The notes under the pieces are model-generated. The model made no database searches and was not told the DNA's origin. It was given only the letters and a program-made list of their open reading frames with translations. A stretch of 44,446 nt of DNA from a virus. Made by a program: the position numbers and the translations under genes. Shown here piece after piece: positions 1-44,446 of the stretch (its first letter is position 1; each line of letters starts with the position of its first letter). The stretch lies in IMG/VR virus record IMGVR_UViG_3300040801_002133, positions 1-44,446 of that record; one strand, written 5' to 3'.

Positions 1-117
1 CATAGTTGCTCTTGTTGTGAGAGGCTATGACCGTCTTGTTTAGTTCTGCGTAAGGAATCGGCAAAGACATTGTAGCATTTACTTTGTGCAAATGCTCTTC
101 ATAGTCTTCTTGAAATC
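1..117. repeat. Terminal direct repeat, copy A (identical to 44330-44446). This is the overlap signature of a circular, circularly permuted or terminally redundant genome.
   Basis: Direct base-by-base comparison of 1-117 with 44330-44446. A minus-strand ORF stays in frame across the implied junction. Confidence 0.9.
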
Positions 118-6784: not shown

Positions 6785-7108
6785 TTAAACCTTGGTGCCG
6801 TTTTGGGACGATTCAGCCGTAACCTGACAATCGAACCACATCAAAAAAAGAAGACAACAGACAGCGTGTGACAGGTGATGCTTGCCAGACTCAGGGTCGA
6901 ATATCTCCCCACTCATCCACGCTGAGATATGGCGCATAGCCGCTGATCCATATCTATCTTGCGGGTCAGGCACCCGCTGCCAGTTGTATTCCTCGTATTT
7001 TTTTGCGCCAAAGGTCAGCACATCAACAACCTGTTCGACCTGCTGCCACGGCAGTAATGACCACCTGGGCTTGCCGCTATCATGTTTTTTGCCGATAGTG
7101 TCGCTCAT
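6785..7108 (-). CDS. Protein with a dATP/dGTP pyrophosphohydrolase-type domain (dGTP_diPhyd_N-like).
   Basis: KHDSGKPRWSLLP...VLTFGAKKYEEYNWQR...AAMRHISAW..GEIFDPESGKHHLSHAVCCLLFL matches the conserved pattern of this small phage domain. GGAGG SD and an ATGA overlap with the upstream HD gene. Confidence 0.6.
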   Translation of the reverse strand: MSDTIGKKHDSGKPRWSLLPWQQVEQVVDVLTFGAKKYEEYNWQRVPDPQDRYGSAAMRHISAWMSGEIFDPESGKHHLSHAVCCLLFLMWFDCQVTAESSQNGTKV

Positions 7109-7698
7109 CTCAACGCCTCCAAAAGAGCTTGCACTTTCGTTATCAACTCTATCCTAATGTCATGATAAGAATCGAATAAGATTTCAATGTCGTACGGCTC
7201 CCATCCTGGCAAAGGGTCTTCGTGTTCTGGAAAAAAGAACAGGATTTCTGTCAACGCTAGTCGAGTGTCTATCTCTTTGACGACGTGTTGAAACCTTGGC
7301 AATTGCCAATCTAACGCTTGCCCTTTGCTCAACATCGCATTGAAAAGCTTTCTCGTTATCCGCTCTTCCGCCTCTAGGTAAGCATTTGTGCTAAAACGCT
7401 TAAGCGGCCTAATAAGGTCTTGAAGATACGCCTCTGCCGCATCATGCAACAAGAACATCAACTGCGCATGAGGCTTGTCGTAACCGTACTTGTATTTCGC
7501 TATTTCGGCAACCAACAAACTGTGATGTGCTACTGAATACGGGAACGAGGTGTGGCCATTGTAACGATTGATAATCGGCAAGCTCATTAGCACTTCCATT
7601 ATTTGCGGCTCAAAGTCCTCGTCAAATGGATCTGCTATTCTTGTTGGCAATATAATGCCGTCTGTTGTTGGCGAATCGTACAGTTTATTTGGTGTCAT
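7105..7698 (-). CDS. HD-domain phosphohydrolase, YfbR-like 5'-deoxynucleotidase type.
   Basis: SVAHHSLLVA ... LLHDAAEAYLQDLIRPLK gives the H..HD..D metal-binding signature. SD is GAGGAGAAA. Confidence 0.7.
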   Translation of the reverse strand: MTPNKLYDSPTTDGIILPTRIADPFDEDFEPQIMEVLMSLPIINRYNGHTSFPYSVAHHSLLVAEIAKYKYGYDKPHAQLMFLLHDAAEAYLQDLIRPLKRFSTNAYLEAEERITRKLFNAMLSKGQALDWQLPRFQHVVKEIDTRLALTEILFFFPEHEDPLPGWEPYDIEILFDSYHDIRIELITKVQALLEALR

Positions 7699-8456: not shown

Positions 8457-8639
8457 TTAATCTGTCTCCCTAGGCTCAAAGCATGCGCAATGTGTAGTTA
8501 AAGGTCTCTGAATTTTTAAGTCGTATTCAGTGCACCACCTACTTCCAGCAGAATATATAAGGTTCTTGCAATTAGCACATACCTTGTCGTCTTCTTCCGT
8601 CTCGAAAAAGTCTGAAAAGTCTTCGTCATATCGTCTCAT
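8457..8639 (-). CDS. Small acidic Cys-rich protein, possibly a zinc ribbon.
   Basis: GAGGAG SD 7 nt before MRRYDEDF. Contains CANC...C...CAC. Confidence 0.4.
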   Translation of the reverse strand: MRRYDEDFSDFFETEEDDKVCANCKNLIYSAGSRWCTEYDLKIQRPLTTHCACFEPRETD

Positions 8640-8844
8640 CTTTAATCTCCTCGTCATGCAAGATGACTGCTGATTGATTCCCAGAAGGATCAGTTTCGTA
8701 TCGCGTGATCAATACCCTGTAGACGTCTTGCGATTTAAAACCGGGATACAACTCTCTCAACGTGTCGAGCGCCGACTGCCAAGTGTCGTGCTCCCACTCT
8801 TCAACAAAATGCTGTGAGTGCAGCCTCAGTACGAACGTCTTCAT
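8626..8844 (-). CDS. Hypothetical protein.
   Basis: ORF with an AAGGAAA SD. No motif was recognised. Confidence 0.4.
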   Translation of the reverse strand: MKTFVLRLHSQHFVEEWEHDTWQSALDTLRELYPGFKSQDVYRVLITRYETDPSGNQSAVILHDEEIKDETI

Positions 8845-9253
8845 GGCTTTTCCTTTGATTGATTGTTGGCGCAGGACAATACAACCTAACGCCCTTGTCG
8901 TCCAGATTGCTCAAGCACTCTTCAAGATAAGCTGGATTGTGCTCAGGATAGTTGAGGAATATTCGCCGATCGCCGTTCGGCAGTTTCTTAGCGTCCACGT
9001 ACCCAATTCCCCGACCGCGCCAGGTCTTGAAGGTCCACTTAACATCGCAACATACGCTATGTTGCAATTCTAGGTACCGCATAACTTCCATGTGGTACTG
9101 ATAAAGCATTTCGTAGTGGTGGTTGAATACGTAATCGACCGTTGCGTGAGGCTTGCCCCAGCCTAACCCGCGCAAAGCGCAACATTCTCTATGTTGCCCT
9201 TGTAGCCATTGCTTGGGCAATTGAGGCAATAATTGGTAGTGCCATAGTCTCAT
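8801..9253 (-). CDS. Pyrimidine-dimer DNA glycosylase family protein (DenV/TIGR02328-like).
   Basis: MRLWHYQLLPQLPKQWLQGQHRECCALRGLGWGKPHATVDYVF is the characteristic N-terminus of this family. AGGAGAA SD. The track ORF start at 9373 is upstream in non-coding repeats. Confidence 0.65.
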   Translation of the reverse strand: MRLWHYQLLPQLPKQWLQGQHRECCALRGLGWGKPHATVDYVFNHHYEMLYQYHMEVMRYLELQHSVCCDVKWTFKTWRGRGIGYVDAKKLPNGDRRIFLNYPEHNPAYLEECLSNLDDKGVRLYCPAPTINQRKSHEDVRTEAALTAFC

Positions 9254-9311
9254 GTCAGTAGTTCTCCTGTATTGATGATTGATGGTTGTGTGCTTCCCTA
9301 CTTCTAAATAA

Positions 9312-9340
9312 ATTTTGATCATTTTGGAACGAAAAGTCAA
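9312..9340 (-). promoter_or_regulatory. Sigma70-type promoter: TTGACT-N17-CAAAAT.
   Basis: Minus strand reads cgcTTGACT tttcgttccaaaatgat CAAAAT, about 60 nt upstream of the glycosylase start. Confidence 0.55.
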
Positions 9341-9367
9341 GCGATTTTTTCGCGCGGACGCGACTTC

Positions 9368-9403
9368 GCGCAAATCCTACGCTGGCTAGGGTTTGCGGGC
9401 GAC
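9368..9403. repeat. 36-bp direct repeat copy 1, containing TCCTA-N7-TAGGG.
   Basis: gcgcaaatcctacgctggctagggtttgcgggcgac. It matches copy 2 at 34 of 36 positions. Confidence 0.85.
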
Positions 9404-9451
9404 GGGCGTAAGTCCTAGGAATTATAGGATTTTGTAAATCGCTTAAAAGCG

Positions 9452-9794
9452 CACGACGCTTGGCGCAATCCCTACGCTGGCTAGGGTTTGCGGGCGACTG
9501 GATTTTGAGTGATTCCGAGGGTTTACGCTGGATTCGGATTTCCACGACGTCTACACGACGCCTGCACGACGTTACAAAAAGGTAATAAAAACGAGTGAAA
9601 ACAGGCGGTTGCCGATTTCCACGACGCGCACGACGCCTAAAATGAGATTGATTCGTTTTTGTATTTTTAAAGAAAAATCGACTTTTTACGCGTCGTGTCC
9701 GTCGTGGACTTTCACCGATCGGCGACTGGCTAGCGTTTAAGGTGTGTTTTGTAACGTCGTGCAGGCGTCGTGTTGGCGTAGTGCTCACGTCGTG
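9452..9794. repeat. Iteron field and putative replication origin. It has 11 CACGACG heptamers, 6 forward and 5 reverse, around an AT-rich core.
   Basis: Forward copies start at 9452, 9543, 9554, 9565, 9620 and 9629. Reverse (CGTCGTG) copies start at 9691, 9700, 9755, 9766 and 9788. There is a perfect 22-bp inverted repeat, 9554-9575 with 9751-9772. The AT-rich centre is about 9640-9690. Confidence 0.6.
9463..9498. repeat. 36-bp direct repeat copy 2, containing CCCTA-N7-TAGGG.
   Basis: gcgcaatccctacgctggctagggtttgcgggcgac, 95 bp downstream of copy 1. Confidence 0.85.
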
Positions 9795-26355: not shown

Positions 26356-29300
26356 ATGGAATACGATCCCTCCCTCGTCAATAGCGCCAACAAGCGCCGG
26401 TACTCCATCGACCCCGCTGATGCCACCACCAGCGAGACAGGCGTGGCTCTGCCGCTTGAGATCACATATGGTGATTTCCCAGAGTTTTTTGACGAGACTG
26501 CACTCACAGCAGCAAGAGCAAGTGATGATTTTATTGGTGAGGATGGTGATAGCCCGAATGAGTTGTTGTGGGACATCGCCGGATCAACTGCTGCGCAATT
26601 TGGCTTAAATGGCCCTTTACATGAGATTCAGTCTAACTCACTGTATTCCAGTGTTTCGACTTCTAATGTATACAACTTGTTTAGCGTCTACAAACTGTCC
26701 GGGGAATTTGATATACAGGTTGATTTAAGTTTAAGCGCTGCTGCTGGAACAGGTTGCGTAATCTATGTTGCCGTAGATAACGACAGTAGACTATTTGCTG
26801 GAAATGATAATAACTCTTGGGTTTTTAGCGGCAAACTTAACGGCACATGGCAAACTGCGAAAACGATATCACACACTGGCGATACAGGTACGGTAAGGTT
26901 GGTCAGGGACAGCGCAAATGTTGTTTCTGCAACCGCAGATGGGAATGCAGCTTCAGGCACGTTCACCATGGCTGGGGATGTGTATATTTACTTGTCCTCA
27001 AAAGGATCGCCACAAACCTTTGACAACTTCACCATCAACTCAGCAGATGCGATCATAGCCGACCCCCTTTACAAAAAAATCTCAGCCGAACAAGACGGCA
27101 TCCAGATCCCGATAGAGGTCAGCCCGAATGAGTGGGATTACTACGACCCTATCAATGACAACACTGTGTTGCTGATAAACTCAATCAATCAGTCGGATGG
27201 CAACACCACCTTTACTGACCTGTCAGATAGTGGGCATACTGTAACGGCAAATGCTGATGTTCAGCACTCCACAACCGAAAAGGTAAACAGTTCTAGTTCT
27301 ATTTATTTTGACGGCACTGGCGACTATCTTAGCTTACTTGACGATAGTGATTGGGACTTATCCAGTTCCACTGACTTTACCATCCAATTTTGGATGAAGA
27401 CTTCCCACTCTGGCCTGATGGCTATTGTTAGCCACTGGGAGTACAACAGCTCAACTGCCACAGATTGGCCCGACTCTGCTTTTGAGATAACAAAAACAGG
27501 ATCTAACTATTTAAATGCCCGTTTTTCCAACGGATATTCTGGCACCAGCCTAGATTCAACCTCTACGGTAAACTCCGGTGATTGGGTGCATGTAGCCATT
27601 TGTAACGATGGAGGAACACTTAGACTGTTTATAGATGGGGTGCAAGAGGATACCGCTACTGCGCCAACTTTTAACACCTCTGCAAGACCATTGTGGATTG
27701 GGCGGCATAATGACGATGGTACGTACTCCTATTTTAACGGCTACATGCAGAGCATTCAGGTTATTAAAGGCGAAGCCTTGCATACTGCCGCTTTCACTCC
27801 ACCATCAAGACTTACAGCAGAAAGCCGCACCGTCCTCTACCTCCCCGTTGACGTAGACGCTGCAAGCGGCGCAGATATCACGATCAGCGCAGATGGTAGT
27901 CAGGATGATAATAGCACGTATGTAGGCGTAACTGGCTCTACGGTTGCCCAATCCGTCTACGACTCCAACTATGTAGCCGTCTACCACATGGCGCAAGATC
28001 CAAGCGGGGGAGCAGGTTGTATATTAGATAGTACGAGCAATGAGAACCACGGTACTCCTCAAGGCAGCATGACAAGCGGCGATCTTGTTGACGCTGGCGC
28101 TGGCAAAGGGTTGGATTTTGATGGCAGTGGTGAATCTATACAAGCGTCGGCAAGTTCCTCATTAAATAATATTCTAAGTTTATCAATTGATTTATTCCTT
28201 AATCTTGATGCTCAAACTGGTAGTGACCCTGCGGGAACACACTTTATAAACAAGACTAGCTGGTTTATTGCAACCGCTGAGGCAAATACCAAATGGATTT
28301 ACGGGGAAGGATACTATGGCTCCGTAGGAAGGTGGAGTATACCAGAGCAAAGCGAAAATCAAGACGTTTTCTTGTCACTGGCTCATGCAAATAGGAATGA
28401 CACCTCTTCAAATCCGGTGATTTGTGTTAATGGAGTTCCCCAAACGGTCACTGAATACACCACTCCCAATGGAACTAGAATTTCTGATTCTAGTTCTGCC
28501 CTTAGAATAGCTGATGCTGTTAATTACGACAGGTGGCTTGACGGTACAATCTCTGAGGTTCGCATCTCCAACACCGTCCGATCCGCAACCTGGATCAACC
28601 TCACTGCCAAGGCTTTTCTTGGCACACTCTGGACTGTCTCAGAGATAGAAGACGCTCCGGGCGGATCTGTTCCTACTACTAAACTCAAGTATACTATCGA
28701 CTCAGCAGATATTGGGTCTACGCTTACTGATTTTCCAGTTGCGTTGAATCTATCAGAAGGAGCAGTAGGTAAAACTGGCTTTGATTGTAAGCCGCTTTGG
28801 GACGAGTTGGATGGAATAGCAGATAGTTGGAAAAAGCTGAAAATCAATTTCCTAGAGACAATCATTGGATTGGCAAGCCTCCATTTCACGATGGAGAATG
28901 CTAGTGGTTCTACTTTGGTTGACGAGAAGGGCAACACTGATGGAACCATTTACGACATGGTTCTCCAAGTAAACGGTGGGCCGTCAAACATCCCATATCT
29001 TGAAGGGGGAGATATTGATTCAGTGGTCAGAAAGGTTGATATGCCTACTGATCAAAGTTTCAAAAGTTGGGCTAGCTGGATTTATATTGGATCACTCAGC
29101 AAGTATCACACCATCTTCAGGGAGCTGGCCAACGCCAGAGCGTTTGGACGAGTTGCTAGCAATTTTGGGACGCCAAACAGGCTGTATTTTTGGAACGGCT
29201 CATCAGTTGTAACCACAAACTTGACTATAGCTTCAACTGGCTGGCATCATGTCGCTGTTGTTGAAGGCTCATCTCCTAATCACCACTGGGTGTATCTCAA

Positions 29301-31407
29301 TGGGGTTAGGTCTAGTGCTGAATATCTTACGAACATGGCTGGTGTTTGGGGTAGACTTGGCGATAACGCCGCAGTCAGCAACTACAATGTTCCTCATTTT
29401 GCAAATGTTCAAACTTTTGACCTTGTTCTGTCGGATGCCCAGGTAACCGAGCTGTATCAAAAAACTGACGCAAGCGAGCTTACGCAGCTTTACCCGGAGC
29501 AACAGCTCTACTCAGAGGTCGAGGTTTGGGATTCCGTCAACCGCAAGGGTATAATCCATACCAAAGTCCCAACAATAAGCAGCACCAGCGATACCGGTAT
29601 TACGGTTGATTTCACTAACAGCAATACGGATCAATCTGAAAATAGCAGTTCTGATAATAATACTGTCCTGTTTAACGCTCCAACTCATGATACGGGTGCC
29701 AGCTCTGGTGCTTATTCTAGGAGAGTCTTAGTAGCTAGTGGAGTACAGACTGCTGGATCTACTGGGTTTGTTAGGTTAAAGTTTGGGCATCTCGGTACGG
29801 ATTATACAGTATCTGATGTATATATTTGGAAGAAAGCAAGCACTGGCGATCACTGGGATGGCGAGCCCGGTACGGGGGTAAAGGTTGGTACATTCACTAT
29901 TACCGCAGAAAATCCGTACACCGATCCAGTAGAATTTGATGTAGACGGCACAGAAAGTATTATTGTTGCTTTTGTTCAGAACAATTCTCCTGGTGTATAT
30001 GCTGCTGGTCAAATGCCGACAAATTGTGCCTCTTATTGGAAATCTGGGGCTACTTTTGAAAGTAATGTTGGTGATGTCTCTGGATACACCTCTAGCTCAA
30101 GTTTTTTCGCGTTAGATGATATAGAGGAAGTACCAATTGAAGATCTAGGTAAGATAGGACTGACCGGCAGTTTCCCGGCCAGTTTAGTCTGGGATGCCAA
30201 CTTCAAAGCCGTCTACCACATGGCGCAAGATCCTAGCGGGGGAGCAGGTTGCATCCTAGATAGCACCAGCAATACAAACCACGGTACGCCTCAAGGTAGC
30301 ATGAACAGTGGGGATCTTGTTGACGCTGGCATTGGTAAGGGGTTGGATTTTGATGGGAGCGATGATCACATAGATTTTGGCACCTCATCAACGCTCAATC
30401 CTGGGGCCTCCAACTTTACTATTGAGAGTGTTGCCTCTCTAACCAGGCAAACGGCTTATGGAGACTACCGGGATCAACACGCAATAGTTAGTAAGGGGGT
30501 GTCAGGGAACAACCCTCTGTACCAAATGGTGGTCACAGAAGGCTTGGATGCTGTGAGGATTGCTATTGAGGGCACTGGCGATCAATACTCTTATGAGCAA
30601 GCCGCAGCCATATCTGAGCAAACGCAAATCCACTTGGCTGGCGTAATAGATCGAGACAGTGACGAAATAACAGCGTATCTCAATGGGGCAAGCCTTGGTA
30701 CTGAGGATACATCAGGGACAAGTATTGGAAACATAGATCCAACACAATCCATGAAAGTTGGGGAGTATGAAGAGAGCGGAAATTACGCCTACAATGTTGA
30801 CGGAACAATCTCAGAAATCCGCATCTCCTACACCACCCGCTCCGCAGATTGGATAGCAGCAACCAATCTATCTCTCACTGATTCTTTTGCAACAGTTGAG
30901 CAGATTTTTACAGTGGGTGGCGTAGGACTGCGCTCCTATGTTGTGCAGTCCTACGACCTTTCAAATGCGGTCTTGAGGGCTATTTTGAGCCAAGACTACG
31001 CAATGCTATCACGGTTTGTCAATTCCTTAATTCAGGGTTACGGACTAAGACTTGCGGCATCTCTAGTTCAGCATTACGGCAACAATCCTCAAATTAGACA
31101 AGCGCTTTACCAGTTTTTTAGTTCAAGCCCTGCTGTTCGAAAAGCGTTAACGCAAGAGTACGGCATTCCTTTTGAACTAATTTCGAAGAGCATACAAGAG
31201 TATGACAGCAATTCAGGACTGCTTAACAGTTTGTTACAAACTTACACTATTACTGATATAGTTCTGATAAATGCGGTATCTCAACAATACGATATCTTAG
31301 AACACAATCCGCTTAGAAATAAGAACATTCAACAATACATTATTCAAACGGATGCCAGAACAATTCTTAACTCTATCTCATTGACGATCTATGGCTCTTC
31401 AAATTAA
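26356..31407 (+). CDS. Giant tail fibre or host-recognition protein with multiple LamG/concanavalin-like lectin domains.
   Basis: 1683 aa. Repeated LamG_3-type signatures are seen: SIYFDGTGDYLSL..FTIQFWMK..WVHVAI..LRLFIDG; GKGLDFDGSGESIQ...DGTISEVRISNTVRSATWI; GKGLDFDGSDDHIDFG...DGTISEIRISYTTRSADWI. Confidence 0.75.
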   Translation: MEYDPSLVNSANKRRYSIDPADATTSETGVALPLEITYGDFPEFFDETALTAARASDDFIGEDGDSPNELLWDIAGSTAAQFGLNGPLHEIQSNSLYSSVSTSNVYNLFSVYKLSGEFDIQVDLSLSAAAGTGCVIYVAVDNDSRLFAGNDNNSWVFSGKLNGTWQTAKTISHTGDTGTVRLVRDSANVVSATADGNAASGTFTMAGDVYIYLSSKGSPQTFDNFTINSADAIIADPLYKKISAEQDGIQIPIEVSPNEWDYYDPINDNTVLLINSINQSDGNTTFTDLSDSGHTVTANADVQHSTTEKVNSSSSIYFDGTGDYLSLLDDSDWDLSSSTDFTIQFWMKTSHSGLMAIVSHWEYNSSTATDWPDSAFEITKTGSNYLNARFSNGYSGTSLDSTSTVNSGDWVHVAICNDGGTLRLFIDGVQEDTATAPTFNTSARPLWIGRHNDDGTYSYFNGYMQSIQVIKGEALHTAAFTPPSRLTAESRTVLYLPVDVDAASGADITISADGSQDDNSTYVGVTGSTVAQSVYDSNYVAVYHMAQDPSGGAGCILDSTSNENHGTPQGSMTSGDLVDAGAGKGLDFDGSGESIQASASSSLNNILSLSIDLFLNLDAQTGSDPAGTHFINKTSWFIATAEANTKWIYGEGYYGSVGRWSIPEQSENQDVFLSLAHANRNDTSSNPVICVNGVPQTVTEYTTPNGTRISDSSSALRIADAVNYDRWLDGTISEVRISNTVRSATWINLTAKAFLGTLWTVSEIEDAPGGSVPTTKLKYTIDSADIGSTLTDFPVALNLSEGAVGKTGFDCKPLWDELDGIADSWKKLKINFLETIIGLASLHFTMENASGSTLVDEKGNTDGTIYDMVLQVNGGPSNIPYLEGGDIDSVVRKVDMPTDQSFKSWASWIYIGSLSKYHTIFRELANARAFGRVASNFGTPNRLYFWNGSSVVTTNLTIASTGWHHVAVVEGSSPNHHWVYLNGVRSSAEYLTNMAGVWGRLGDNAAVSNYNVPHFANVQTFDLVLSDAQVTELYQKTDASELTQLYPEQQLYSEVEVWDSVNRKGIIHTKVPTISSTSDTGITVDFTNSNTDQSENSSSDNNTVLFNAPTHDTGASSGAYSRRVLVASGVQTAGSTGFVRLKFGHLGTDYTVSDVYIWKKASTGDHWDGEPGTGVKVGTFTITAENPYTDPVEFDVDGTESIIVAFVQNNSPGVYAAGQMPTNCASYWKSGATFESNVGDVSGYTSSSSFFALDDIEEVPIEDLGKIGLTGSFPASLVWDANFKAVYHMAQDPSGGAGCILDSTSNTNHGTPQGSMNSGDLVDAGIGKGLDFDGSDDHIDFGTSSTLNPGASNFTIESVASLTRQTAYGDYRDQHAIVSKGVSGNNPLYQMVVTEGLDAVRIAIEGTGDQYSYEQAAAISEQTQIHLAGVIDRDSDEITAYLNGASLGTEDTSGTSIGNIDPTQSMKVGEYEESGNYAYNVDGTISEIRISYTTRSADWIAATNLSLTDSFATVEQIFTVGGVGLRSYVVQSYDLSNAVLRAILSQDYAMLSRFVNSLIQGYGLRLAASLVQHYGNNPQIRQALYQFFSSSPAVRKALTQEYGIPFELISKSIQEYDSNSGLLNSLLQTYTITDIVLINAVSQQYDILEHNPLRNKNIQQYIIQTDARTILNSISLTIYGSSN

Positions 31408-37648: not shown

Positions 37649-37817
37649 ATTTAGCTTTTTTCTCTTGTGACGTCATGTGCCATCTGTCGCACATTTCACA
37701 ATGAAATACTCTAATAGGCTTCTTTTCTCCTTTAGCGCCTTTTAGTTGCGAGAAAGACATTGCTGTTCTTGCAAGCTCTGCTGTTGGATAGCCAATCTTT
37801 CCTGTTAAACAACGCAT
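37647..37817 (-). CDS. Small zinc-ribbon protein.
   Basis: GGAGG SD and TAATG coupling to the polymerase stop. MRCLTGKIGY...FHCEMCDRWHMTS. Confidence 0.45.
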   Translation of the reverse strand: MRCLTGKIGYPTAELARTAMSFSQLKGAKGEKKPIRVFHCEMCDRWHMTSQEKKAK

Positions 37818-39649
37818 TAATCTGCCTCCGCCCAATTATTTCCTGTGTGACAATCGACAAGCAACGGCACGTCAAACTCTACTGCTTTTTCCATTGTCTG
37901 CTTCAACTCTTCCATTGCCTCTTTTCCTGCCGGAGTCTTGGCAACAGATACGTCCAACTCATCGTGAACTGTCATGTGCAACTTCAATTCGTCGAACAAT
38001 CCTGCTTTGTGCGCGTCTACAATTGCTTTTTTCATTACGTCAGCGGCTGATCCTTGAATAAGTCGATTGAACATGCTGTGGAGCTTTCTGCTTGGATGAG
38101 TCCTTGCTTTCCTGCCAAGAATTGTAAATACATGGCCTCTGCGAGCCGCCACCTCTGACACGGTATTCCTCAAGCGCTTAACGTATGGTGCGGCTCTATG
38201 GTACCCGGCCATGAATTCCTCTGCTTCGTCCATTGTCCATCCAAAAGTTTCTGAGGCAGTTTTGACTCCCATTCCATACGCGCCTCCAAAGTTGAGTCTT
38301 TTAGCGGTTCGTCTATCAAATCCTGTGCTGTCGCAAATAACTTGGTGCAAATCCGTTTTTGGATCTTCAACATATCTTCTTCTGAGATTTTCTGCTGGGG
38401 AGCCTTCCGCGTAGTGTGCCATGATTCGATATTCAATCTGCGAGTAGTCGAGCTTTGCCCATTCACAGTCTTCTTCTGGAATGAAAAGCTGTCGCAACAC
38501 TTGTCCTTTTGCGTCTTCGTCGTCTCCCTCTTCATCAATAGCTGAGACTTGCTGAAGATTTGGTTTACTTGCTGAAAATCTACCAGCAACTGTTCCGTAA
38601 TCGTCTGACTTAAGAGGGTGGAAAGTTCCATAAAGTCTCCCTTCGACGAGCATTTTCAAGTAAGGATGTAGAAACATAGAAATTATTGTATCTACGTGCC
38701 TGTATTCTAGAATTTTATCGCATACAGGGTACTTACTAGTTAGTTTGTTTAGCGCCAACTTGTCCATTCTAGGATTGCCTTGTTTTCCTTCTCTTTTCAT
38801 TCTGTCAGTTGGCGGTCGTCTCGGATAAGGTATTCCGTCTCTGTCAAACAGCTTTGCAAGCTGAATAGGAGAATTGAGATTGACCTCATACCCTGCCCAT
38901 TCTGAAAGCTCTTTTTGTAGCGCCCAGCGTCGCTCGGTGAACGTACGCACAGCTGTAGAAAATTTTTTCTCGTCGATTTTCACGCCGTTTTTGCGCATTT
39001 TTAAGAGCGAAGGAATCAGCTCAGTCTCCAGCTTGTAAATATCGGTCAAGCCTTCTCGTTCTAGTGCTCTATATTGCTTTTTAAATATCTTAAGAGGAAG
39101 ATCAACGTCTGCCAATGCGTACTCTTCTACGACTTCAGCGGGCATTTTCCAAAGATTGCTGATTGCTTTTCCTTTCCAATTCATCATCGAATTGTAATCT
39201 TCAAGAACGTTAGTCTTCTTTTCTTCTTCTGTATGCTCCTTAGCCAAACTGCTTAATGAGTATGATCTTCTGTACTCATTAAGCAAAGGCTCTGCGTATT
39301 GTACGTCATGAAGCGCGCTCATGTTCACGTTGAAGCCTTCGTGAGTCAGCCATTCTAAGTCGTACACTATGTTTGCGCCAAGCTTTGCAGAAGGACTAGA
39401 CAACACTTCAGCGATTGCTGCTTTGTTTCTTTTTCTAGTACTTTCATCAGTATCCGGGTGACGAACGTCAAGGTAACAAGACACTAATTCTCCTTCTATT
39501 TCTGCTCCTAAGCCTACCCCACAAATATAGCCTTCGCCGCGATGTGTCCCTGGTCCGTAATCAACTAAACCAGGATCTTTTGTTTCTATGTCAACACAAA
39601 CAACTTCTGCCTTGCAAAGTTTGCTAATCGTTTCATCTTCTGCTAGCAT
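37817..39649 (-). CDS. Family A DNA polymerase with a 3'-5' exonuclease domain.
   Basis: Exo I VCVDIETKD, Exo II NIVYDLEWL, Exo III YALADVDL. Pol motif A is LDYSQIEYRIMAH, motif B RRTAKRLNFGGAYGMG, motif C VHDELDV. The start was chosen at MLAEDE behind AAGGAG. Confidence 0.92.
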   Translation of the reverse strand: MLAEDETISKLCKAEVVCVDIETKDPGLVDYGPGTHRGEGYICGVGLGAEIEGELVSCYLDVRHPDTDESTRKRNKAAIAEVLSSPSAKLGANIVYDLEWLTHEGFNVNMSALHDVQYAEPLLNEYRRSYSLSSLAKEHTEEEKKTNVLEDYNSMMNWKGKAISNLWKMPAEVVEEYALADVDLPLKIFKKQYRALEREGLTDIYKLETELIPSLLKMRKNGVKIDEKKFSTAVRTFTERRWALQKELSEWAGYEVNLNSPIQLAKLFDRDGIPYPRRPPTDRMKREGKQGNPRMDKLALNKLTSKYPVCDKILEYRHVDTIISMFLHPYLKMLVEGRLYGTFHPLKSDDYGTVAGRFSASKPNLQQVSAIDEEGDDEDAKGQVLRQLFIPEEDCEWAKLDYSQIEYRIMAHYAEGSPAENLRRRYVEDPKTDLHQVICDSTGFDRRTAKRLNFGGAYGMGVKTASETFGWTMDEAEEFMAGYHRAAPYVKRLRNTVSEVAARRGHVFTILGRKARTHPSRKLHSMFNRLIQGSAADVMKKAIVDAHKAGLFDELKLHMTVHDELDVSVAKTPAGKEAMEELKQTMEKAVEFDVPLLVDCHTGNNWAEAD

Positions 39650-40178
39650 TGTCATCTCCTTCAAATTTCGGCTTTTTGTTTTCACTGAGCCATTTTCTTG
39701 CAGACTTGTTGTGATCTATGACAATTCCTAAGCAATCTTCTGCTGCTACTCTGGCGTAAATTGCCTCTTCTTTTGACTCGTATTCTCCTAAGTAGTATTG
39801 TATTCCGTTGTAATTGAGATTTGCTTTCCAACTTGCTGTCTTCTTCACAAAATTTATTCCTGCTATTCCTTTAACTATCTTCGTATTTTCATAATACGAC
39901 TTCTCAGCAAGATTAGAAAGCATGTTGTTAGTCTTGTCGCCATCTAAGTGCGTCAAGTAGCCTTTTGGCCATTTTCCATAAACCATAAGCCAAATCACTC
40001 TGTGCACTAAGTAAGTGACTCCTTTTACGTTGAGGGCGAGATTTCCGCTCTTTTGCAATGCTCCTACTATTTGTCCTTCTCTCAGCGCCCTGGTATTGAC
40101 TTTGGAATACAACAGCCCTCTTCTTGAATCGTAGTGGAATCGCTTAAGAGCTTCTTCTTGAGTTAACTCTTCTTTCAT
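39633..40178 (-). CDS. HNH homing endonuclease with an AP2-type DNA-binding domain.
   Basis: YLVHRVIWLMVYGKWPKGYLTHLDGDKTNNMLSNL is the HNH_3 signature. GINFVKKTASWKANLNYNGIQYYLGEYESKEEAIYA is AP2-like. Confidence 0.8.
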   Translation of the reverse strand: MKEELTQEEALKRFHYDSRRGLLYSKVNTRALREGQIVGALQKSGNLALNVKGVTYLVHRVIWLMVYGKWPKGYLTHLDGDKTNNMLSNLAEKSYYENTKIVKGIAGINFVKKTASWKANLNYNGIQYYLGEYESKEEAIYARVAAEDCLGIVIDHNKSARKWLSENKKPKFEGDDNASRR

Positions 40179-41413
40179 GACTTTCCAGGCTCCCTGTTAG
40201 AAGGCTTAGAACACTGGTGAACACAAATATTCGGCCAATGCGAATAGTTTGTTTTGTAAGGAATGTCGTACTCTACTTCTCTTACTCCTATCAGATCTAG
40301 CATTTTCAAGCAAGCGTCGCAAGGGCCGTGAGTTACGTACACTTTGACTTTAGAGAAATCAGGAGATATTCCCGCTTTTCTCAACTTATCTAGCGCTCTG
40401 TGCTCCGCGTGTACAGAAGGACAGCCAGTTTCAAACCACCTGTCATTTTCGTCGTCTCTTGCACAAGTTTTGCAAGGTTCTCTGTGCTCCGCCACGTCCC
40501 CATAGCCATATGAAATAATCTCTTCGGCTTTGTTGTCGTGCTTGATTGTCATAACACAACCGACTTTCTTCTTAAGGCAATTAGATTTCTGTGCCTCTTT
40601 CCATGCCCTCTCCATAAAGTCAGGCTTTAATAGACTATTGACGACTGGAATATATTTCATTGCCAGGTCGTAGTAAAAATCTTCTGCCAACTGATGCTGG
40701 TCGATTGTCTGTCCTGAAAGGAGCGCTTTTTCAAGCTCTTCTCTTTTGTACTCGTAGAAGTGCAGAGAGTTTGCGAAATGCGTATAAGTTCCGAGCGACA
40801 AACAAGGATAGTCATGTCTAAGAACTTCGATCAAAGCTCTCTGAACAAAGCAAAAGAAAGGAACGTCGTAAGGCAATCCGTAATAAATGTCGCTAGATCG
40901 CATTACTGCCGTTAGGTGAAGCTTATCTTCGTTGTCGATCCTCGCCTTAAGAAACATTGTACAAGGATTGTCGTTAGATATGTAAGCGTTTTCATTGTTG
41001 TAAATTGTCATTACGGCCTTCTTACTGCCTTTGCTGTTGCGCAAGCAATTTGCAGCGTGCTCGAATTGCGTAACGCCGTGAGTGTTCTTGTCGTGAAAAA
41101 GGAGCTTGCCGTAATTGCTGTTAACTGTCTCTCCATCGTCTGTACAATTCTCCCAGAACTTGCTGCACTTGACGGCATCTGCCAATAAGTTGGATCCTGA
41201 CATATAGAAGTGGAATTCTTCAGAAAGGTAATGCGTCGACATGTCCCTGCATATTGCCATACATCTGCCAGGATCTTTTATTGTGAAAATGGCGTCGTGC
41301 AGTTCAGTAAGCTTCTTGCCTTTTCTAGATACGCTTTCTTCGCCTTTAGAAAACAGCTCGTCAATAAGCTTTTTGTAAACAGAGTTAAAAGAAATATCAA
41401 CTATTGGTTTCAT
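40175..41413 (-). CDS. Fusion of a thymidylate-synthase-family pyrimidine C5 (hydroxy)methylase and a dCMP deaminase.
   Basis: The N-terminal part reads EEFHFYMSG, NSNYG, NPCTMF (catalytic Cys) and MRSSDIYYGLPYD. The C-terminal part reads VHAEHRAL (HAE) and HGPCDACLKM (PCxxC). AGGAG SD. Confidence 0.75.
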   Translation of the reverse strand: MKPIVDISFNSVYKKLIDELFSKGEESVSRKGKKLTELHDAIFTIKDPGRCMAICRDMSTHYLSEEFHFYMSGSNLLADAVKCSKFWENCTDDGETVNSNYGKLLFHDKNTHGVTQFEHAANCLRNSKGSKKAVMTIYNNENAYISNDNPCTMFLKARIDNEDKLHLTAVMRSSDIYYGLPYDVPFFCFVQRALIEVLRHDYPCLSLGTYTHFANSLHFYEYKREELEKALLSGQTIDQHQLAEDFYYDLAMKYIPVVNSLLKPDFMERAWKEAQKSNCLKKKVGCVMTIKHDNKAEEIISYGYGDVAEHREPCKTCARDDENDRWFETGCPSVHAEHRALDKLRKAGISPDFSKVKVYVTHGPCDACLKMLDLIGVREVEYDIPYKTNYSHWPNICVHQCSKPSNREPGKS

Positions 41414-41422
41414 ATCGCGCTC

Positions 41423-42814
41423 CTATAAGATTAAGTACTCTAAAGGACAGTGCCAATCTCTGCTTGGCGCTATCACTGTCAGCTTGTTGCTAGACCTTGT
41501 TACTCCAACAAACAAGCACCTAAGTTCCATGTCTGGATAGATTTCTCTCATGTCCTCTACCTTCTTGGAAGTGTCTGTTGCAATTATTACGTGAGAATTT
41601 TCTGATCCTTTACTGCCGTGAAACGTTTCTAATTCTACTCTTGCTCTTGTGTATCCTCTTGTGTCGATTAGTTTCCTGTAGTAGTTGGTTACGTAAGCGC
41701 TTTCTCTCAACGCTTCATGCCAATCGTGATCCTTGCTAATGAACATGAAGTAACTTTCTTGTCTTTTTGTAAGCGCTTCTATTTCTCCTGCCTTGTACTT
41801 GTTGTATGCTAGAATAGCGTCTAGCAATCGTTGATCTACGCTGTCTTTACCTTTGAACGAGAACCAATATCCTGCTTCTGCCAAAGAATTAGACATTTCC
41901 CTTAAGACGTACTTTGTCCTTGCTAAAACAAGCTCGCCTCCTTCGAGCCTTACGTCTGTAAACTTCTCTTTATAAGACAGTTCTCCTCTTTCTTCTTTAG
42001 GTTCAAGTATCTTTTCTTGTCTTACTTTCAATCCTCTTACTATGTTGCCAGCCAATGCGTGAACAGCAACCGGCATTCTGTAACTTTTGTCTAGAAACAC
42101 AACTTCTTTTGAGAAATTGATAAATCTTTTTACATCCGCTCCTGCCCATTCGTAAACTGCTTGGTCGTCGTCTCCTGCAACAACTACCTTTTCTGCGTTA
42201 GAGAACATTTTCTCTATCACGTCCCATTGTAGTTTTGTAAGGTCTTGCGCCTCGTCTACGTAAGCAATCTTTACAGGAACAGGATCTCCTGTTTCCATAT
42301 AATCGACTAACATGTCAGTAAAGTCAATTAAGTTAAGTTGCTCTTTCATTCTTGCCATTTCTTTCTCGACGAATAAGTACTTGCCTTCGTCAAGATTTAA
42401 GTCTTTTATTATCCTGGCGTGCCTTTCAGGATTTTGTCTCTTCATTTCTATCGCGTGAAGATAAGCGTCGTTTGGCGAAGAGTAGTCTTCTGTGTAATGT
42501 CCGCAAAAGTTTATTCCTACTTTTTCAGAAAACAGCCTATAGTGTTTCTTGCCTATTACGTCGTTTCTGCTTAGCTTAAGCGCTTTAAAACAAAGGGAGT
42601 GTATCGTACCAAAGTACGGAAGGTCGTCCTCTTTAAGAGAGAATCTGTCTATTGCTCTAAACTTGCCTTCATCTACTCCATTGTTAGTAAAAGAAACAAA
42701 AGCAATCTCTTCGGGCGCGTAAGTCTTTAACTCCTCTTCTAGCCTAGAAAGTATGTACGTGGTCTTTCCCGTGCCTGGAGGCCCGTAAATCGTCTGTTTG
42801 CTGAAGGTGCTCAT
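41423..42814 (-). CDS. UvrD/Rep-like SF1 DNA helicase.
   Basis: GPPGTGKTT (Walker A), YVDEAQDL (Walker B), AGDDDQAVYEWAG, KSYRMP, FHGSKGSE, VGVTRSSNKL. The start was chosen at MSTFSK behind AGGAG. Confidence 0.85.
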   Translation of the reverse strand: MSTFSKQTIYGPPGTGKTTYILSRLEEELKTYAPEEIAFVSFTNNGVDEGKFRAIDRFSLKEDDLPYFGTIHSLCFKALKLSRNDVIGKKHYRLFSEKVGINFCGHYTEDYSSPNDAYLHAIEMKRQNPERHARIIKDLNLDEGKYLFVEKEMARMKEQLNLIDFTDMLVDYMETGDPVPVKIAYVDEAQDLTKLQWDVIEKMFSNAEKVVVAGDDDQAVYEWAGADVKRFINFSKEVVFLDKSYRMPVAVHALAGNIVRGLKVRQEKILEPKEERGELSYKEKFTDVRLEGGELVLARTKYVLREMSNSLAEAGYWFSFKGKDSVDQRLLDAILAYNKYKAGEIEALTKRQESYFMFISKDHDWHEALRESAYVTNYYRKLIDTRGYTRARVELETFHGSKGSENSHVIIATDTSKKVEDMREIYPDMELRCLFVGVTRSSNKLTVIAPSRDWHCPLEYLIL

Positions 42815-43370
42815 AAAATCTCCTGTCAACTCCTGCAGAATAAGAGTTTATTTTAGCCGCTCTTCCTTTCCAATCTCTAAGCGACACAGAGCTTGTTTTT
42901 ACTTTCAATAACGCCCTAAGCTTTTCTTGGTGCCATTCAGGAAGAAACAGTTGCATCTCATCAAATTGCTCTAAAAAGTTTACTAACGAAGTTTCTAAGA
43001 ACAAATACCCTGTATTGGTTTCATAAACGCCTCCGCGCCCAATGTCAGCTTGATCTTCTGTCAGTCTTTCTGAGACAAATTGCGCTACTCTCTTAAGCCA
43101 AATCTCTTCAAGAACGTCTTCAGAGTAAGTTTCTGTGTTTGACAATGCTTTATTAACAAGCATAATCCAAGCTTCGTTAGAAATTTTTAACAAAAGTTCT
43201 CCAGTAGCTTCTAGAAACTTGTCGACAAGCTTTCTCTGATTAGACAGGTGTCTAGTTGAGTCAAAGTGCAAAATTGTGCCGTGTTCTACGTTCCAAGAGT
43301 ACTTGGCTTTTCTTCCGTATCTTACTTTAATTTCTCCAAACCAAATATCTGAAACTCTTCTGCCTACCAT
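42744..43370 (-). CDS. Stand-alone paralog of the prim-pol C-terminal domain.
   Basis: AGGAG SD. Hand alignment with the prim-pol C-terminal half shows shared Y.W...G.IL.FD, W..L..A..N, WL.RV.QF..ER.T, G.VY and KGR..I landmarks in the same order. Confidence 0.5.
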   Translation of the reverse strand: MVGRRVSDIWFGEIKVRYGRKAKYSWNVEHGTILHFDSTRHLSNQRKLVDKFLEATGELLLKISNEAWIMLVNKALSNTETYSEDVLEEIWLKRVAQFVSERLTEDQADIGRGGVYETNTGYLFLETSLVNFLEQFDEMQLFLPEWHQEKLRALLKVKTSSVSLRDWKGRAAKINSYSAGVDRRFYEHLQQTDDLRASRHGKDHVHTF

Positions 43371-43371
43371 T

Positions 43372-43599
43372 CTACGCTCCTATTTTTTGTAAAACTAACT
43401 GTCTGCGATACTCTATGTCTTTTTCTGTAATAACAGACTTGTCTAAGACTATTCTGCAATCGTTGCAAACAATCATGCTTTTTCTCCAGTAGATTTTCTT
43501 TTCTTCAGTCTCTTTGCACATTGATGTCTCTATTATCTTCTTGCCGCACTTTTCGCACACAGGCGCAAAGTGATTAGTGTAAGGTTCTCTCTTTTTCAT
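43372..43599 (-). CDS. Small zinc-ribbon protein.
   Basis: CEKCGK ... CNDC. TAATG coupling to the prim-pol stop. Confidence 0.45.
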   Translation of the reverse strand: MKKREPYTNHFAPVCEKCGKKIIETSMCKETEEKKIYWRKSMIVCNDCRIVLDKSVITEKDIEYRRQLVLQKIGA

Positions 43600-44446
43600 T
43601 AGAATTTCTTCCTATGTTCTTCTAAGTATTGAATAGGTTTCTTGCCTTCAGACTGCACTTCCATTAAGAATGCTTTCTTGTCCTTAATGTTCATGAGCAC
43701 GCCTCTACGCTTAAGCTCTGCAATTTTCAGAATAACGACTCTGCCTTTGAAGTGTTTTCTAGTTATATTCTTAAATACTCCTCCTAGAAGGCTTTTAACA
43801 AGCTCGTTGTGTCTTCTAATTGCATAACTAGCAAACGCCTTTGTGTCGTGCAAGTACTCTGCGAGAGACATTGCTTTGAATATTATCTCTGTCTCAGACA
43901 AGTACACTTTTCCTTCTTCTACTTCTGAAAGATTAGGCGTTTGTCTTTCTTTGCAAAACTGCGTAACTCTGTGCAACCAAAGATTGTCGTCAGATATTTC
44001 GTCTCTAGAAGGCTCTTCTACTGCAATATTGTCCATAGCAGTTTTCAAAACCTCTACCCACTTTGCTTCTTTCATCCTATGTTGCGGAAGATGAAGCTCC
44101 TTTAGACAAAGCGTTCTGAATACAGATTGGCTCTCTAACGCTTTTGCGTCGTCAAACCGCAATATCTTTCCATTTATCTCCCATTCGTAGTACGGCTCAG
44201 AAGAGCTGAAGACCGTCAATTGTCCAAAGTTGAGAGAAGTTACGCTGTCGCTAGACACTCCAAATTCTCTTTTGGAGCACATTTCTCTATCGCAAACAGG
44301 CGACAGTACAGGAGACTTGCAATCGTAAGCATAGTTGCTCTTGTTGTGAGAGGCTATGACCGTCTTGTTTAGTTCTGCGTAAGGAATCGGCAAAGACATT
44401 GTAGCATTTACTTTGTGCAAATGCTCTTCATAGTCTTCTTGAAATC
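43599..44446 (-). CDS. Prim-pol, C-terminal part. This is the same gene as 1-856, and the overlap 44330-44446 duplicates 1-117.
   Basis: The track ORF 43599-44420 begins at a TTG that is internal to the junction-spanning ORF. There is no stop between 44446 and 43602. Confidence 0.8.
   Translation of the reverse strand, partial: FQEDYEEHLHKVNATMSLPIPYAELNKTVIASHNKSNYAYDCKSPVLSPVCDREMCSKREFGVSSDSVTSLNFGQLTVFSSSEPYYEWEINGKILRFDDAKALESQSVFRTLCLKELHLPQHRMKEAKWVEVLKTAMDNIAVEEPSRDEISDDNLWLHRVTQFCKERQTPNLSEVEEGKVYLSETEIIFKAMSLAEYLHDTKAFASYAIRRHNELVKSLLGGVFKNITRKHFKGRVVILKIAELKRRGVLMNIKDKKAFLMEVQSEGKKPIQYLEEHRKKF
44330..44446. repeat. Terminal direct repeat, copy B (identical to 1-117).
   Basis: Same comparison as copy A. 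Confidence 0.9.

Follow-up and report, generated by a model that had tools for sequence, protein, structure and literature searches.

The window considered here is a stretch of viral DNA of 44,446 nucleotides (IMG/VR record IMGVR_UViG_3300040801_002133, positions 1 to 44,446). It carries a gene that encodes, in one polypeptide, a thymidylate synthase (TS)-fold domain followed by a zinc deaminase domain of the deoxycytidylate (dCMP) deaminase type. This fusion probably serves to put 5-hydroxymethyluracil (5hmU) and/or 5-hydroxymethylcytosine (5hmC) into the phage DNA. The open reading frame (ORF) is made up as follows.

40175 to 41413, minus strand: whole fusion ORF, 412 amino acids (aa) plus the stop codon
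40709 to 41413, minus strand: N-terminal thymidylate-synthase-fold domain, residues 1-235, predicted dCMP 5-hydroxymethylase (Pfam, PHROG, PDB and Foldseek matches)
40628 to 40708, minus strand: inter-domain linker, residues 236-262, with a long helix (237-261) in the AlphaFold2 (AF2) model
40214 to 40627, minus strand: C-terminal zinc deaminase domain, residues 263-400 (PF00383; PDB matches to the dCMP deaminases 2hvv and 4p9c)

The ORF begins with ATG, is preceded at a distance of about 8 nt by an AGGAG Shine-Dalgarno sequence, and contains the motifs EEFHFYMSG, NSNYG, NPCTMF, MRSSD, GLPYD, HAE and PCDAC. Pfam places Thymidylat_synt at residues 12-231 (E 2.5e-17, 63 bits, curated cutoff 24) and dCMP_cyt_deam_1 (PF00383) at residues 265-382 (E 7e-13, 48.8 bits, curated cutoff 25). 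The PHROGs matches, 'thymidylate synthase' (1.6e-33) and 'dCMP deaminase' (2.5e-18), are concordant. An initial annotation of this DNA had described a ThyA-fold enzyme fused to an apparently intact deaminase zinc domain, and both the domains and the motif spacing it gave (PCTMF-x16-MRSSD, versus PCHAF-x15-QRSCD in E. coli) are borne out. The AF2 model, for which 22 family members were the input, has a mean predicted local distance difference test score (pLDDT) of 89.

A sequencing or assembly frameshift could join two ordinary neighbouring genes into such an ORF, and related phages do have separate genes with overlapping stop and start codons. However, the identical 412-aa protein is found on 7-8 contigs, at least three of which are from separate JGI samples. 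A database search with the protein returned 249 homologues; the best 120, to which all conservation counts below refer, are two-domain proteins of 42-65% identity, many of them on 42-47 kb contigs. About 20 full-length fused clusters were obtained in an exhaustive search of 50%-identity representatives, one 90%-identity cluster holds more than 1,200 sequences, and BFVD/UniProt contains one uncharacterised fused homologue, from 'Myoviridae sp. ctOAa14'. The linker is also modelled as a continuous, confident helix. Because the fusion recurs across contigs and in more than 120 homologues, it is taken to be real and the frameshift, a possibility raised in the initial annotation, is excluded, the chance of an artefact being negligible.

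The fusion family is confined to uncultured myoviruses. No cultured phage with the fusion was found in the searches, megablast of 14 kb of the window against GenBank phages returned no near-identical phage, and among GTDB genomes only two metagenome-assembled genome contigs match, neither of which gives a clue to the host. Databases label the protein and its homologues 'thymidylate synthase' or 'dCMP deaminase', and JGI also uses 'deoxycytidylate deaminase/thymidylate synthase'.

The substrate and product of the TS-like domain can be predicted from a small number of positions.

40865 to 40867, minus strand: Asp183 codon (E. coli Asn177, T4 Asp179), the cytosine-versus-uracil determinant; located by alignments, 120/120 members
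40961 to 40972, minus strand: Asp148-Asn-Pro-Cys151, with Cys151 catalytic and Asp148 equivalent to E. coli Leu143 and T4 Asp145; hydroxymethylase signature (PMC6400193, PMC13326640)
41111 to 41119, minus strand: Ser99-Asn-Tyr101 of NSNYG (Ser94-x-Tyr96 of T4 dCMP hydroxymethylase, dCH); motif identical to T4
40889 to 40900, minus strand: Arg172-Ser173-Ser-Asp175, with Asp175 equivalent to E. coli Asp169 and Ser173 to MilA Ala176; located by alignments

The protein was aligned with E. coli ThyA, T4 gp42 and the dUMP hydroxymethylases of SP10, CampHawk (SPO1-like), PaTs-2 (M6-like), SKML-39 (ViI-like) and Pam3. In the MAFFT alignment the column of E. coli residue 177 has Asn in ThyA and in all five dUMP hydroxymethylases, and Asp in T4 gp42, the window protein (Asp183), Xp15 and Agathobaculum phage AB434P2. 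A HMMER alignment to MilA also puts Asp183 in the Asn177/Asp179 column. The initial annotation had read an Asp at this specificity position from a hand alignment, which was correct, and the alternative that Asn stands there is refuted. Asp is found not only in all 120 members but in all 138 alignable nearest representatives, fused or unfused. The N177D and D179N swaps are known to reverse base specificity (PMC8670742, PMC6400193). The MetaGPA study identified position 147 as a second site that separates modified-C from canonical contigs (PMC8670742); E. coli His147 is replaced by Thr in the window protein, as in cytosine-type enzymes.

Two cultured phages with Asp in the 177 column deserve comment in their own right. 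In AB434P2 (OP172633) a gene at L008:3838-4500 is labelled 'deoxyuridylate hydroxymethyltransferase' and has Asp at 177 as well as Asp three residues before the catalytic Cys (the -3 position); these residues predict a dCMP hydroxymethylase, and the GenBank label is probably mistaken. In Xp15 (L002:1375-5311) a carbamoyltransferase gene lies near a TS homologue with Asp at both positions and an adjacent dCMP deaminase, an arrangement that matches the 5hmC carbamoyltransferase systems of MetaGPA.

These positions bear on whether the protein merely supplies thymidylate, with the deaminase making dUMP and the TS-fold domain methylating or hydroxymethylating it despite the Asp. Such a role would agree with the names that JGI gives the family and with the canonical 5hmU pathway, in which DctD acts first and a dUMP hydroxymethylase second. 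However, the Asp is without exception in the family and all the dUMP-using references have Asn, the specificity swaps and the Thr at position 147 point to cytosine, and the NCBIfam ThyA equivalog models give only 20-52 bits against cutoffs of 108-427. Ordinary thymidylate supply is very improbable. The fold and the PC and Arg-Ser-x-Asp motifs of classical ThyA are present, but Asn177, Leu143, Trp83 (Cys90 here, invariant) and the C-terminal tail are not; in ThyA the last three close off the active site so that hydride transfer can take place. The domain likewise departs from the dUMP hydroxymethylases, which combine Asp at -3 with Asn177: it has the first and has Asp at the second. The best PDB sequence matches to the TS-like domain are MilA and T4 dCH. 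Foldseek also returns MilA (4e-18) and T4 dCH (1e-14, TM-score 0.80 normalised to the target), and many TS structures match at about 1e-14.

The nature of the transferred group is suggested by the residues around the catalytic Cys. From the T4 dCH ternary complex, the hydroxymethylase signature has been described as an acidic residue three before the Cys (Asp145; Leu in ThyA), the water-holding Ser94-x-Tyr96 and the absence of a C-terminal tail, and the D145N mutation abolishes hydroxymethylation (PMC6400193). Lee et al. (2026) restated the L143 rule and found that D169N marks 5-hydroxy-dCMP synthases (PMC13326640). The published code is therefore N177D for a dC substrate, L143D/E for a hydroxymethyl product and retention of D169 for one-carbon transfer (PMC13326640, PMC6400193, PMC8670742). 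In the window family Asp183, Asp148 and Asp175 are each present in 120/120 members, Cys151, Arg172 and Ser173 are also invariant, and the TS-type C-terminal segment is absent, its place being taken by the linker helix and the deaminase. Because Asp183, Asp148, Asp175 and Ser-x-Tyr fit the published diagnostic positions, the N-terminal domain is quite likely, on these residues, to be a 5-hydroxymethyl-dCMP (5hm-dCMP) synthase. The same residues argue against a methylase, a dUMP enzyme and a 5-hydroxycytosine synthase; for the last, which is typified by RB69 gp48 and DLP3 gp80 with D169N, the window protein has Asp175.

The initial annotation had left open whether methyl- or hydroxymethyl-dCMP is made. 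A methylase would place the phage with Xp12 and PaMx74, in which 5m-dCMP is made for 5-methylcytosine (5mC) DNA and the deaminase converts 5m-dC to dT nucleotides. The Asp at position 177 would fit, TS to deaminase adjacency is documented in 5mC phages, and five of the seven deaminase-linked TS homologues that have been tested made 5mdCMP, with deaminases that prefer 5mC (bioRxiv 10.1101/2024.12.05.627091). However, Asp148 is invariant, whereas the 5mC phage PaMx74 has Asn there, the change that in T4 kills hydroxymethylation. NSNYG is T4-like and PaMx74 has KAAYG. PaMx74 retains a TS-like tail, all Pamexviruses encode dihydrofolate reductase (DHFR) while none is found in the complete window genome, and sister clades carry a glycosyltransferase that needs a hydroxyl acceptor. 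Asp148, Ser-x-Tyr and the lack of a TS tail and a DHFR gene thus favour the hydroxymethyl product and disfavour the methyl one, and a 5m-dCMP to dTMP enzyme is improbable.

Two further positions relate to the sugar and the phosphate. MilA Ala176 admits ribose and the MilA A176S mutant prefers dCMP; Ser173 at this position predicts a deoxyribose substrate. The Ala that CMP hydroxymethylases have at the Ser167 position is therefore replaced by Ser173, and Lys131, at the Arg126' position, is present as in those enzymes. Lys131-Lys132 (41018-41023, minus strand) replace E. coli Arg126'/Arg127' ('DSRR') in 119/120 members, and MilA has Lys-Arg at this cross-dimer phosphate-binding arginine pair.

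The deaminase domain has the following features.

40403 to 40411, minus strand: His335-Ala-Glu337, zinc ligand and proton shuttle; 120/120
40310 to 40321, minus strand: Cys365-Asp-Ala-Cys368, PCxxC zinc ligands; 120/120
40499 to 40501, minus strand: Gly305, at the position of the GYNG Asn of unfused phage dCMP deaminases; Gly in 118/120, Ser in 2/120, never Asn

With HxE and PCxxC invariant, the domain is likely to be active. It is atypical and divergent. GYNG forms the loop after strand 2 in canonical dCMP deaminases (T4 Cd/ComEB/DCTD type) and is kept in the unfused deaminases of PaMx74, AXL3, Xp15, SP10 and Aeromonas phage 31; not one of the 120 members retains its Asn. The domain reaches 34 bits with the ComEB equivalog model, whose cutoff is 219, and is 32-35% identical to any cultured-phage dCMP deaminase. 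Reading the substrate from sequence was rejected on account of this identity and of the polyphyly of selectivity.

Cytosine-modified viromes are enriched in deaminases encoded beside Asp177 TS genes; of the TS-adjacent deaminases that are active, more than 60% prefer 5mC/5hmC nucleotides, and seven TS-adjacent deaminases gave 5hmdU in an E. coli 5hmC system (bioRxiv 10.1101/2024.12.05.627091). The window deaminase shares the position that marks these methylation-selective cytidine deaminases (mSCD), beside an Asp177 TS homologue, to which it is here fused. Human DCTD can use 5hm-dCMP as a substrate, and the resulting 5hm-dUMP is phosphorylated by thymidylate kinase (PMC10305735).

Two substrates of the fused deaminase were considered, 5hm-dCMP in a serial scheme and dCMP in a parallel, T4-like one, and the serial scheme is tentatively favoured. 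In the parallel scheme, which is possible but carries less weight, 5hm-dCMP would be made for 5hmC DNA while the deaminase converts dCMP to dUMP for host ThyA to turn into dTMP. The fusion would then fix the ratio of the two fates of dCMP, as a covalent gp42/Cd partnership, and a MazG-like protein of the phage would be the dCTPase. The residue-code evidence for a dCMP hydroxymethylase applies equally to this scheme, T4 itself encodes the dCTPase gp56, gp42 and dCMP deaminase, and a supply of dUMP would be useful to a genome of 57% A+T. In cytosine-modified viromes, Asp177 TS homologues and deaminases are accompanied by MazG/PRA-PH-type pyrophosphatases (PMC8670742, bioRxiv 10.1101/2024.12.05.627091), and in PaMx74, AXL3 and L052 the gene order is NTP pyrophosphatase (NTP-PPase), TS, deaminase. 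The loss of the GYNG Asn, which all the compared unfused dCMP deaminases keep, speaks against it. Protein fusions more often link consecutive than competing steps, which also counts against the parallel scheme.

The remainder of the genome contributes the genes that lie around the fusion and those that co-occur with it.

41423 to 42829, minus strand: UvrD-like helicase, conserved upstream neighbour of the fusion
37817 to 39685, minus strand: family A DNA polymerase (PolA), conserved downstream neighbour of the fusion
39633 to 40178, minus strand: HNH homing-endonuclease-like ORF (HNH_3/AP2-type), between the fusion and PolA, with a 4-nt overlap with the fusion stop
7105 to 7698, minus strand: HD-domain, YfbR-like 5'-deoxynucleotidase, co-occurring with the fusion and absent from fusion-less relatives
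6785 to 7108, minus strand: MazZ/MazG-like NTP pyrophosphohydrolase domain protein (PF18909), candidate dCTPase or dTTPase/dUTPase

The window represents a whole genome, circular or terminally redundant, whose ends share an exact overlap of 117 bp (1-117 and 44330-44446). The AEP-TOTE primase gene is split across the ends, from 43599-44446 and continuing at 2-856 (minus strand), and its product is 528 aa in L011. The fusion is the single TS homologue of the genome. No DHFR, T4 gp56-like or PaMx74-like pyrophosphatase, or TET-associated glycosyltransferase (TAGT) was found in the window. Pfam and PHROG scans of its ORFs gave no match to a deoxynucleoside monophosphate (dNMP) kinase or a glycosyltransferase, and no Walker A motifs occur beyond those of helicases, primase, terminase and a tail protein. 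The initial annotation had seen neither a dNMP kinase nor a glycosyltransferase, in agreement with the scans of the complete genome. The lack of a detectable kinase for 5hm-dCMP is a point against the parallel, T4-like scheme. In published work, assays of 5hm-dCMP incorporation in E. coli co-express T4 gp1 or the cognate phage kinase (bioRxiv 10.1101/2024.12.05.627091, PMC13326640), whereas a 5hm-dUMP pathway has been rebuilt in that host with no phage kinase at all.

The order UvrD helicase, fusion, PolA is kept in every related contig examined. The HNH ORF is absent at its position in relatives, looks like a mobile insertion, and lies outside the pathway. Other ORFs of the window were also observed. 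A 208-aa ORF in the interval between primase and UvrD (42744-43370, minus strand) has 27% similarity to the C-terminal part of the primase and may be a paralogous primase fragment. The early region encodes a Pyr_excise (T4 endonuclease V-like pyrimidine-dimer DNA glycosylase) domain protein (8801-9373, minus strand), and the tail region a very large ORF of 1683 aa (26356-31407, plus strand).

The initial annotation had connected the fusion with an HD nucleotidase and a dNTP pyrophosphohydrolase-like gene at 6785-7698, and the identities of both genes are confirmed. The Pfam name of PF18909 is 'dATP/dGTP diphosphohydrolase N-terminal', and the gene abuts the HD gene. Every fusion-bearing locus whose upstream region is covered has the HD gene. 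In L020-L022, whose PolA is 51-59% identical, UvrD lies beside PolA and neither the fusion nor the HD gene is found, which makes the modification module an accessory one in this lineage of phages. The nearest unfused TS-like relatives occupy the same syntenic slot and have a separate deaminase whose start overlaps the TS stop. In one relative, L122, the YfbR-like HD, PF18909 MazZ-like, TS-like and deaminase genes form one block: the HD and MazZ-like genes flank UvrD beside the TS-like gene, with the MazZ-like gene directly upstream of the TS-like gene. This block, like the tracking of the fusion by the HD gene, supports the proposed link between the fusion and the genes at 6785-7698. Since the T4 scheme offers no function for an HD 5'-deoxynucleotidase, this tracking also counts against the parallel scheme.

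L122 also has a Mom-like (PF25680) gene after its TS-like/deaminase pair (L122:7467-8039), which hints at a second, adenine-directed DNA modification in that phage. Two other assignments were considered and set aside. The MazZ-like and HD pair recalls MazZ/DatZ of the 2-aminoadenine phages and suggested a Z-genome (PurZ) phage; no PurZ-like protein was found among the ORFs scanned, and the ORF whose size would fit encodes a DNA ligase. CampHawk gp140, the SPO1-type 'phosphatase' beside the dUMP hydroxymethylase, was tested as a homologue of the HD protein and is not homologous.

Sister clades of the window phage carry additional modification genes.

L014:219-995, L017:760-2432, L023/L029 at about 8480-9270: sister-clade TAGT/Nmad2 loci
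L029:6286-7233, L023:6249-7205, L079:507-1772: PF18723 ('HMUDK_hel', clade-1 aGPT-Pplase) proteins

In two sister clades, whose fusion is 43-45% identical, TAGT (54 bits against a cutoff of 27.5) adjoins the ligase, and one of the two also has Nmad2. TAGT is linked to 5hmC systems, which favours the parallel scheme. A ferritin/rubrerythrin-like gene (L014:4552-5058) was also observed in the TAGT clade. The PF18723 protein is present in three fusion-bearing subclades and not in the window genome. A PF18723-clade genome of 43.8 kb was rebuilt to 91% by contig walking with clade-specific proteins (bases 1-4119 of contig 134020 lie outside the coverage), and the rebuilt part contains no TS homologue besides the fusion. 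When the terminase was used as the anchor to find the rest of the sister-clade genomes, only close relatives of the window were returned. In the structural region of the PF18723-clade contig IMGVR_UViG_3300045988_134020 an ADP-ribosyltransferase exoenzyme domain (PF03496, 2e-20) was noted at 8631-9593 (L117:15106-16068).

Pfam labels PF18723 '5-hmdU DNA kinase, helical domain', but a role as the kinase was rejected since the protein has no Walker A/P-loop. Its homologues include PaTs-2 gp65, by position the equivalent of M6 gp55, and Pam3 gp50, annotated as aGPT-Pplase1, and each of these adjoins the true P-loop kinase gene. M6 gp55 is dispensable in vitro. No P-loop partner, aGPT-Pplase2 or radical-SAM gene was detectable on the fusion-bearing PF18723 contigs. 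PF18723 serves only to mark clusters, all of them so far 5hmU-modifying, and is no proof of 5hmU. Its proteins have been seen so far only in thymidine-hypermodification clusters, which is a further point against the parallel scheme.

The fusion is viewed here, tentatively, as a bifunctional nucleotide-pool enzyme that takes dCMP to 5hm-dCMP and then to 5hm-dUMP in one polypeptide, with host kinases and PolA completing the route. In the N-terminal domain Cys151, methylenetetrahydrofolate and an Asp148-activated water would convert dCMP to 5hm-dCMP, as predicted from the published residue codes. The fused zinc deaminase would convert some or all of this to 5hm-dUMP, host thymidylate and NDP kinases would raise it to 5hm-dUTP, and the phage PolA would build 5hm-dUTP into the DNA where T would otherwise stand. 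Some 5hmC may also arise from 5hm-dCMP that is not deaminated. The HD 5'-deoxynucleotidase and the MazG-like NTP pyrophosphatase would clear dTMP/dTTP/dUTP or dCTP and feed dCMP to the enzyme. The advantage of hydroxymethylating first may be that dCMP is committed without a dUMP stage, where host ThyA could divert the flux to dTMP.

Five observations speak for the serial route. The fusion stands in the slot that is otherwise taken by neighbouring TS and deaminase genes, whose stop and start codons overlap, and it joins them in reaction order. The complete genome has no candidate dNMP kinase. An HD nucleotidase is present in the thymidine-type phage Pam3 and has no place in the T4 scheme. The association with PF18723 is a fourth point, and the altered deaminase loop a fifth. 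The initial annotation had suggested a single polypeptide that makes a modified dCMP and then deaminates it; the 5-hydroxymethyl version of this suggestion is the one retained, and the 5m-dCMP to dTMP version is not. An extension of the serial route, likewise tentative, is that the protein is a channelled '5hm-dUMP synthase' that reverses the classical order and replaces T with 5hmU from the dCMP pool, with no dUMP and no dNMP kinase of its own. To the same tentative degree, the sister-clade fusion would feed a base-J-like or other hypermodification of 5hmU through the TAGT and PF18723 proteins. With partial deamination, both pyrimidines could be hydroxymethylated by a single enzyme.

A number of points weigh against the serial route. 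T4 runs the same three activities (dCTPase, dCMP hydroxymethylase and dCMP deaminase) in parallel, and by analogy the fusion could hard-wire that branch point. Local alignments of the TS-like domain with T4 gp42 show an identity of only 23-28%, and for this distant clade the residue codes are correlative. Modified-C selectivity is polyphyletic among the deaminases, with no sequence signature, and mSCD-B5, the best studied of them, acts on triphosphates and not monophosphates (bioRxiv 10.1101/2024.12.05.627091). The HD protein is only weakly similar to YfbR, and the substrate roles of the HD and MazG-like proteins are those of candidates. PF18723 is absent from the window and, where present, lacks the P-loop kinase, aGPT-Pplase2 and radical-SAM partners of real thymidine-hypermodification clusters. 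The TAGT of the sister clades is best known with 5hmC. The specificity of the host kinases is an assumption, and several small ORFs of the window have no annotation.

Replacement of bases by phages defeats restriction and CRISPR defences and has been a source of enzymes for 5hmC/5mC sequencing. The known routes are dCMP to 5hm- or 5m-dCMP, dUMP to 5hm-dUMP, and, in 5mC phages, 5m-dC to dT. If the proposal is right, a natural single-polypeptide route from dCMP through 5hm-dCMP to 5hm-dUMP would add a fourth logic to these. The co-occurrence of deaminases with cytosine-type TS homologues that yield a hydroxymethyl rather than a methyl product would then have an explanation. The route would also mean that an Asp177 TS homologue alone is no proof of modified cytosine in DNA, which virome mining at present infers from it. 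A fused and possibly 5hmC-selective mononucleotide deaminase could serve biotechnology. If the protein is instead a T4-like branch point, it is an ordinary covalent version of a known enzyme partnership.

The module of an Asp177 TS homologue and a deaminase, with or without an NTP pyrophosphatase, near PolA has already been published (PMC8670742; bioRxiv 10.1101/2024.12.05.627091), as have the residue codes. What is new is the fused architecture and the possible 5hm-dUMP route. The initial annotation knew of no characterised enzyme with this fusion, and the literature searches returned none: no description of the fused protein was found, the only matches being unrelated engineered Toxoplasma markers, and no natural phage route from 5hm-dCMP to 5hm-dUMP was found.

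Among known systems, the T4 enzymes gp42, Cd and gp56 have in common with the window the TS fold, the catalytic Cys, the Asp177-type residue, Asp at -3, NSNYG and the missing tail. The same trio of NTP pyrophosphatase, hydroxymethylase and deaminase occurs in T4, but as separate proteins encoded far apart. T4 also has the dNMP kinase gp1, Td and glucosyltransferases, which the window genome does not. The identity is only 23-28%, the two phosphate-binding Arg residues (DSRR) are Lys-Lys in the window, and the window deaminase lacks the GYNG Asn.

Pairs of an Asp177 TS homologue and an mSCD are known from Xp12, PaMx74 and MetaGPA contigs (bioRxiv 10.1101/2024.12.05.627091; eLife 2021, PMC8670742). 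As in the window, the cytosine-specific TS is near PolA and an NTP pyrophosphatase and directly upstream of a PF00383/PF14437 deaminase. The published role of mSCD is to convert a modified C nucleotide to the corresponding U/T nucleotide (bioRxiv 10.1101/2024.12.05.627091). However, these pairs are two proteins and five of the seven tested TS partners are methylases, whereas the window protein is fused, has a hydroxymethylase signature and would yield 5hmU rather than T. In PaMx74 all C is reportedly replaced by 5mC, and the TS homologue of this phage is a relative of tested dCMP methylases (bioRxiv 10.1101/2024.12.05.627091). That homologue combines Asn at -3 with KAAYG and a TS-like tail, and the phage also encodes DHFR (frd); none of these is found in the window.

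The canonical 5hmU pathway of SPO1, SP10, phiW-14, M6, ViI, SH-Ab 15599 and Pam3 runs from dCMP deaminase to dUMP hydroxymethylase, together with a dTTPase/dUTPase and a dTMPase. It shares with the window the deaminase, a TS-fold hydroxymethylase with Asp at -3, the NTP pyrophosphatase and the nucleotidase, and in it host kinases suffice for 5hm-dUMP. The canonical hydroxymethylases have Asn177 and act on dUMP after deamination, whereas with the Asp of the window protein the order would be reversed. The window also lacks the 5-hydroxymethyluracil DNA kinase (5-HMUDK), a P-loop kinase, and the aGPT-Pplase2 of the canonical thymidine hypermodifiers. Pam3 is a structural relative, since several Pam3-derived Pfam families match the window, but it is a canonical thymidine hypermodifier, in which an Asn177 hydroxymethylase is followed by an HD 5'-deoxynucleotidase.

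The CMP 5-hydroxymethylases MilA and BcmA are the best PDB match and, like the window protein, have Asp at the 177 and 143 positions and Lys at Arg126'. MilA differs in being a bacterial enzyme of an antibiotic pathway, with Ala176 where the window has Ser173 and with no deaminase fusion. The DHFR-TS proteins of protozoa and plants have another partner domain and an orthodox TS that converts dUMP to dTMP; as a TS fold fused to the enzyme of an adjacent step, they provide a precedent for a channelling fusion.

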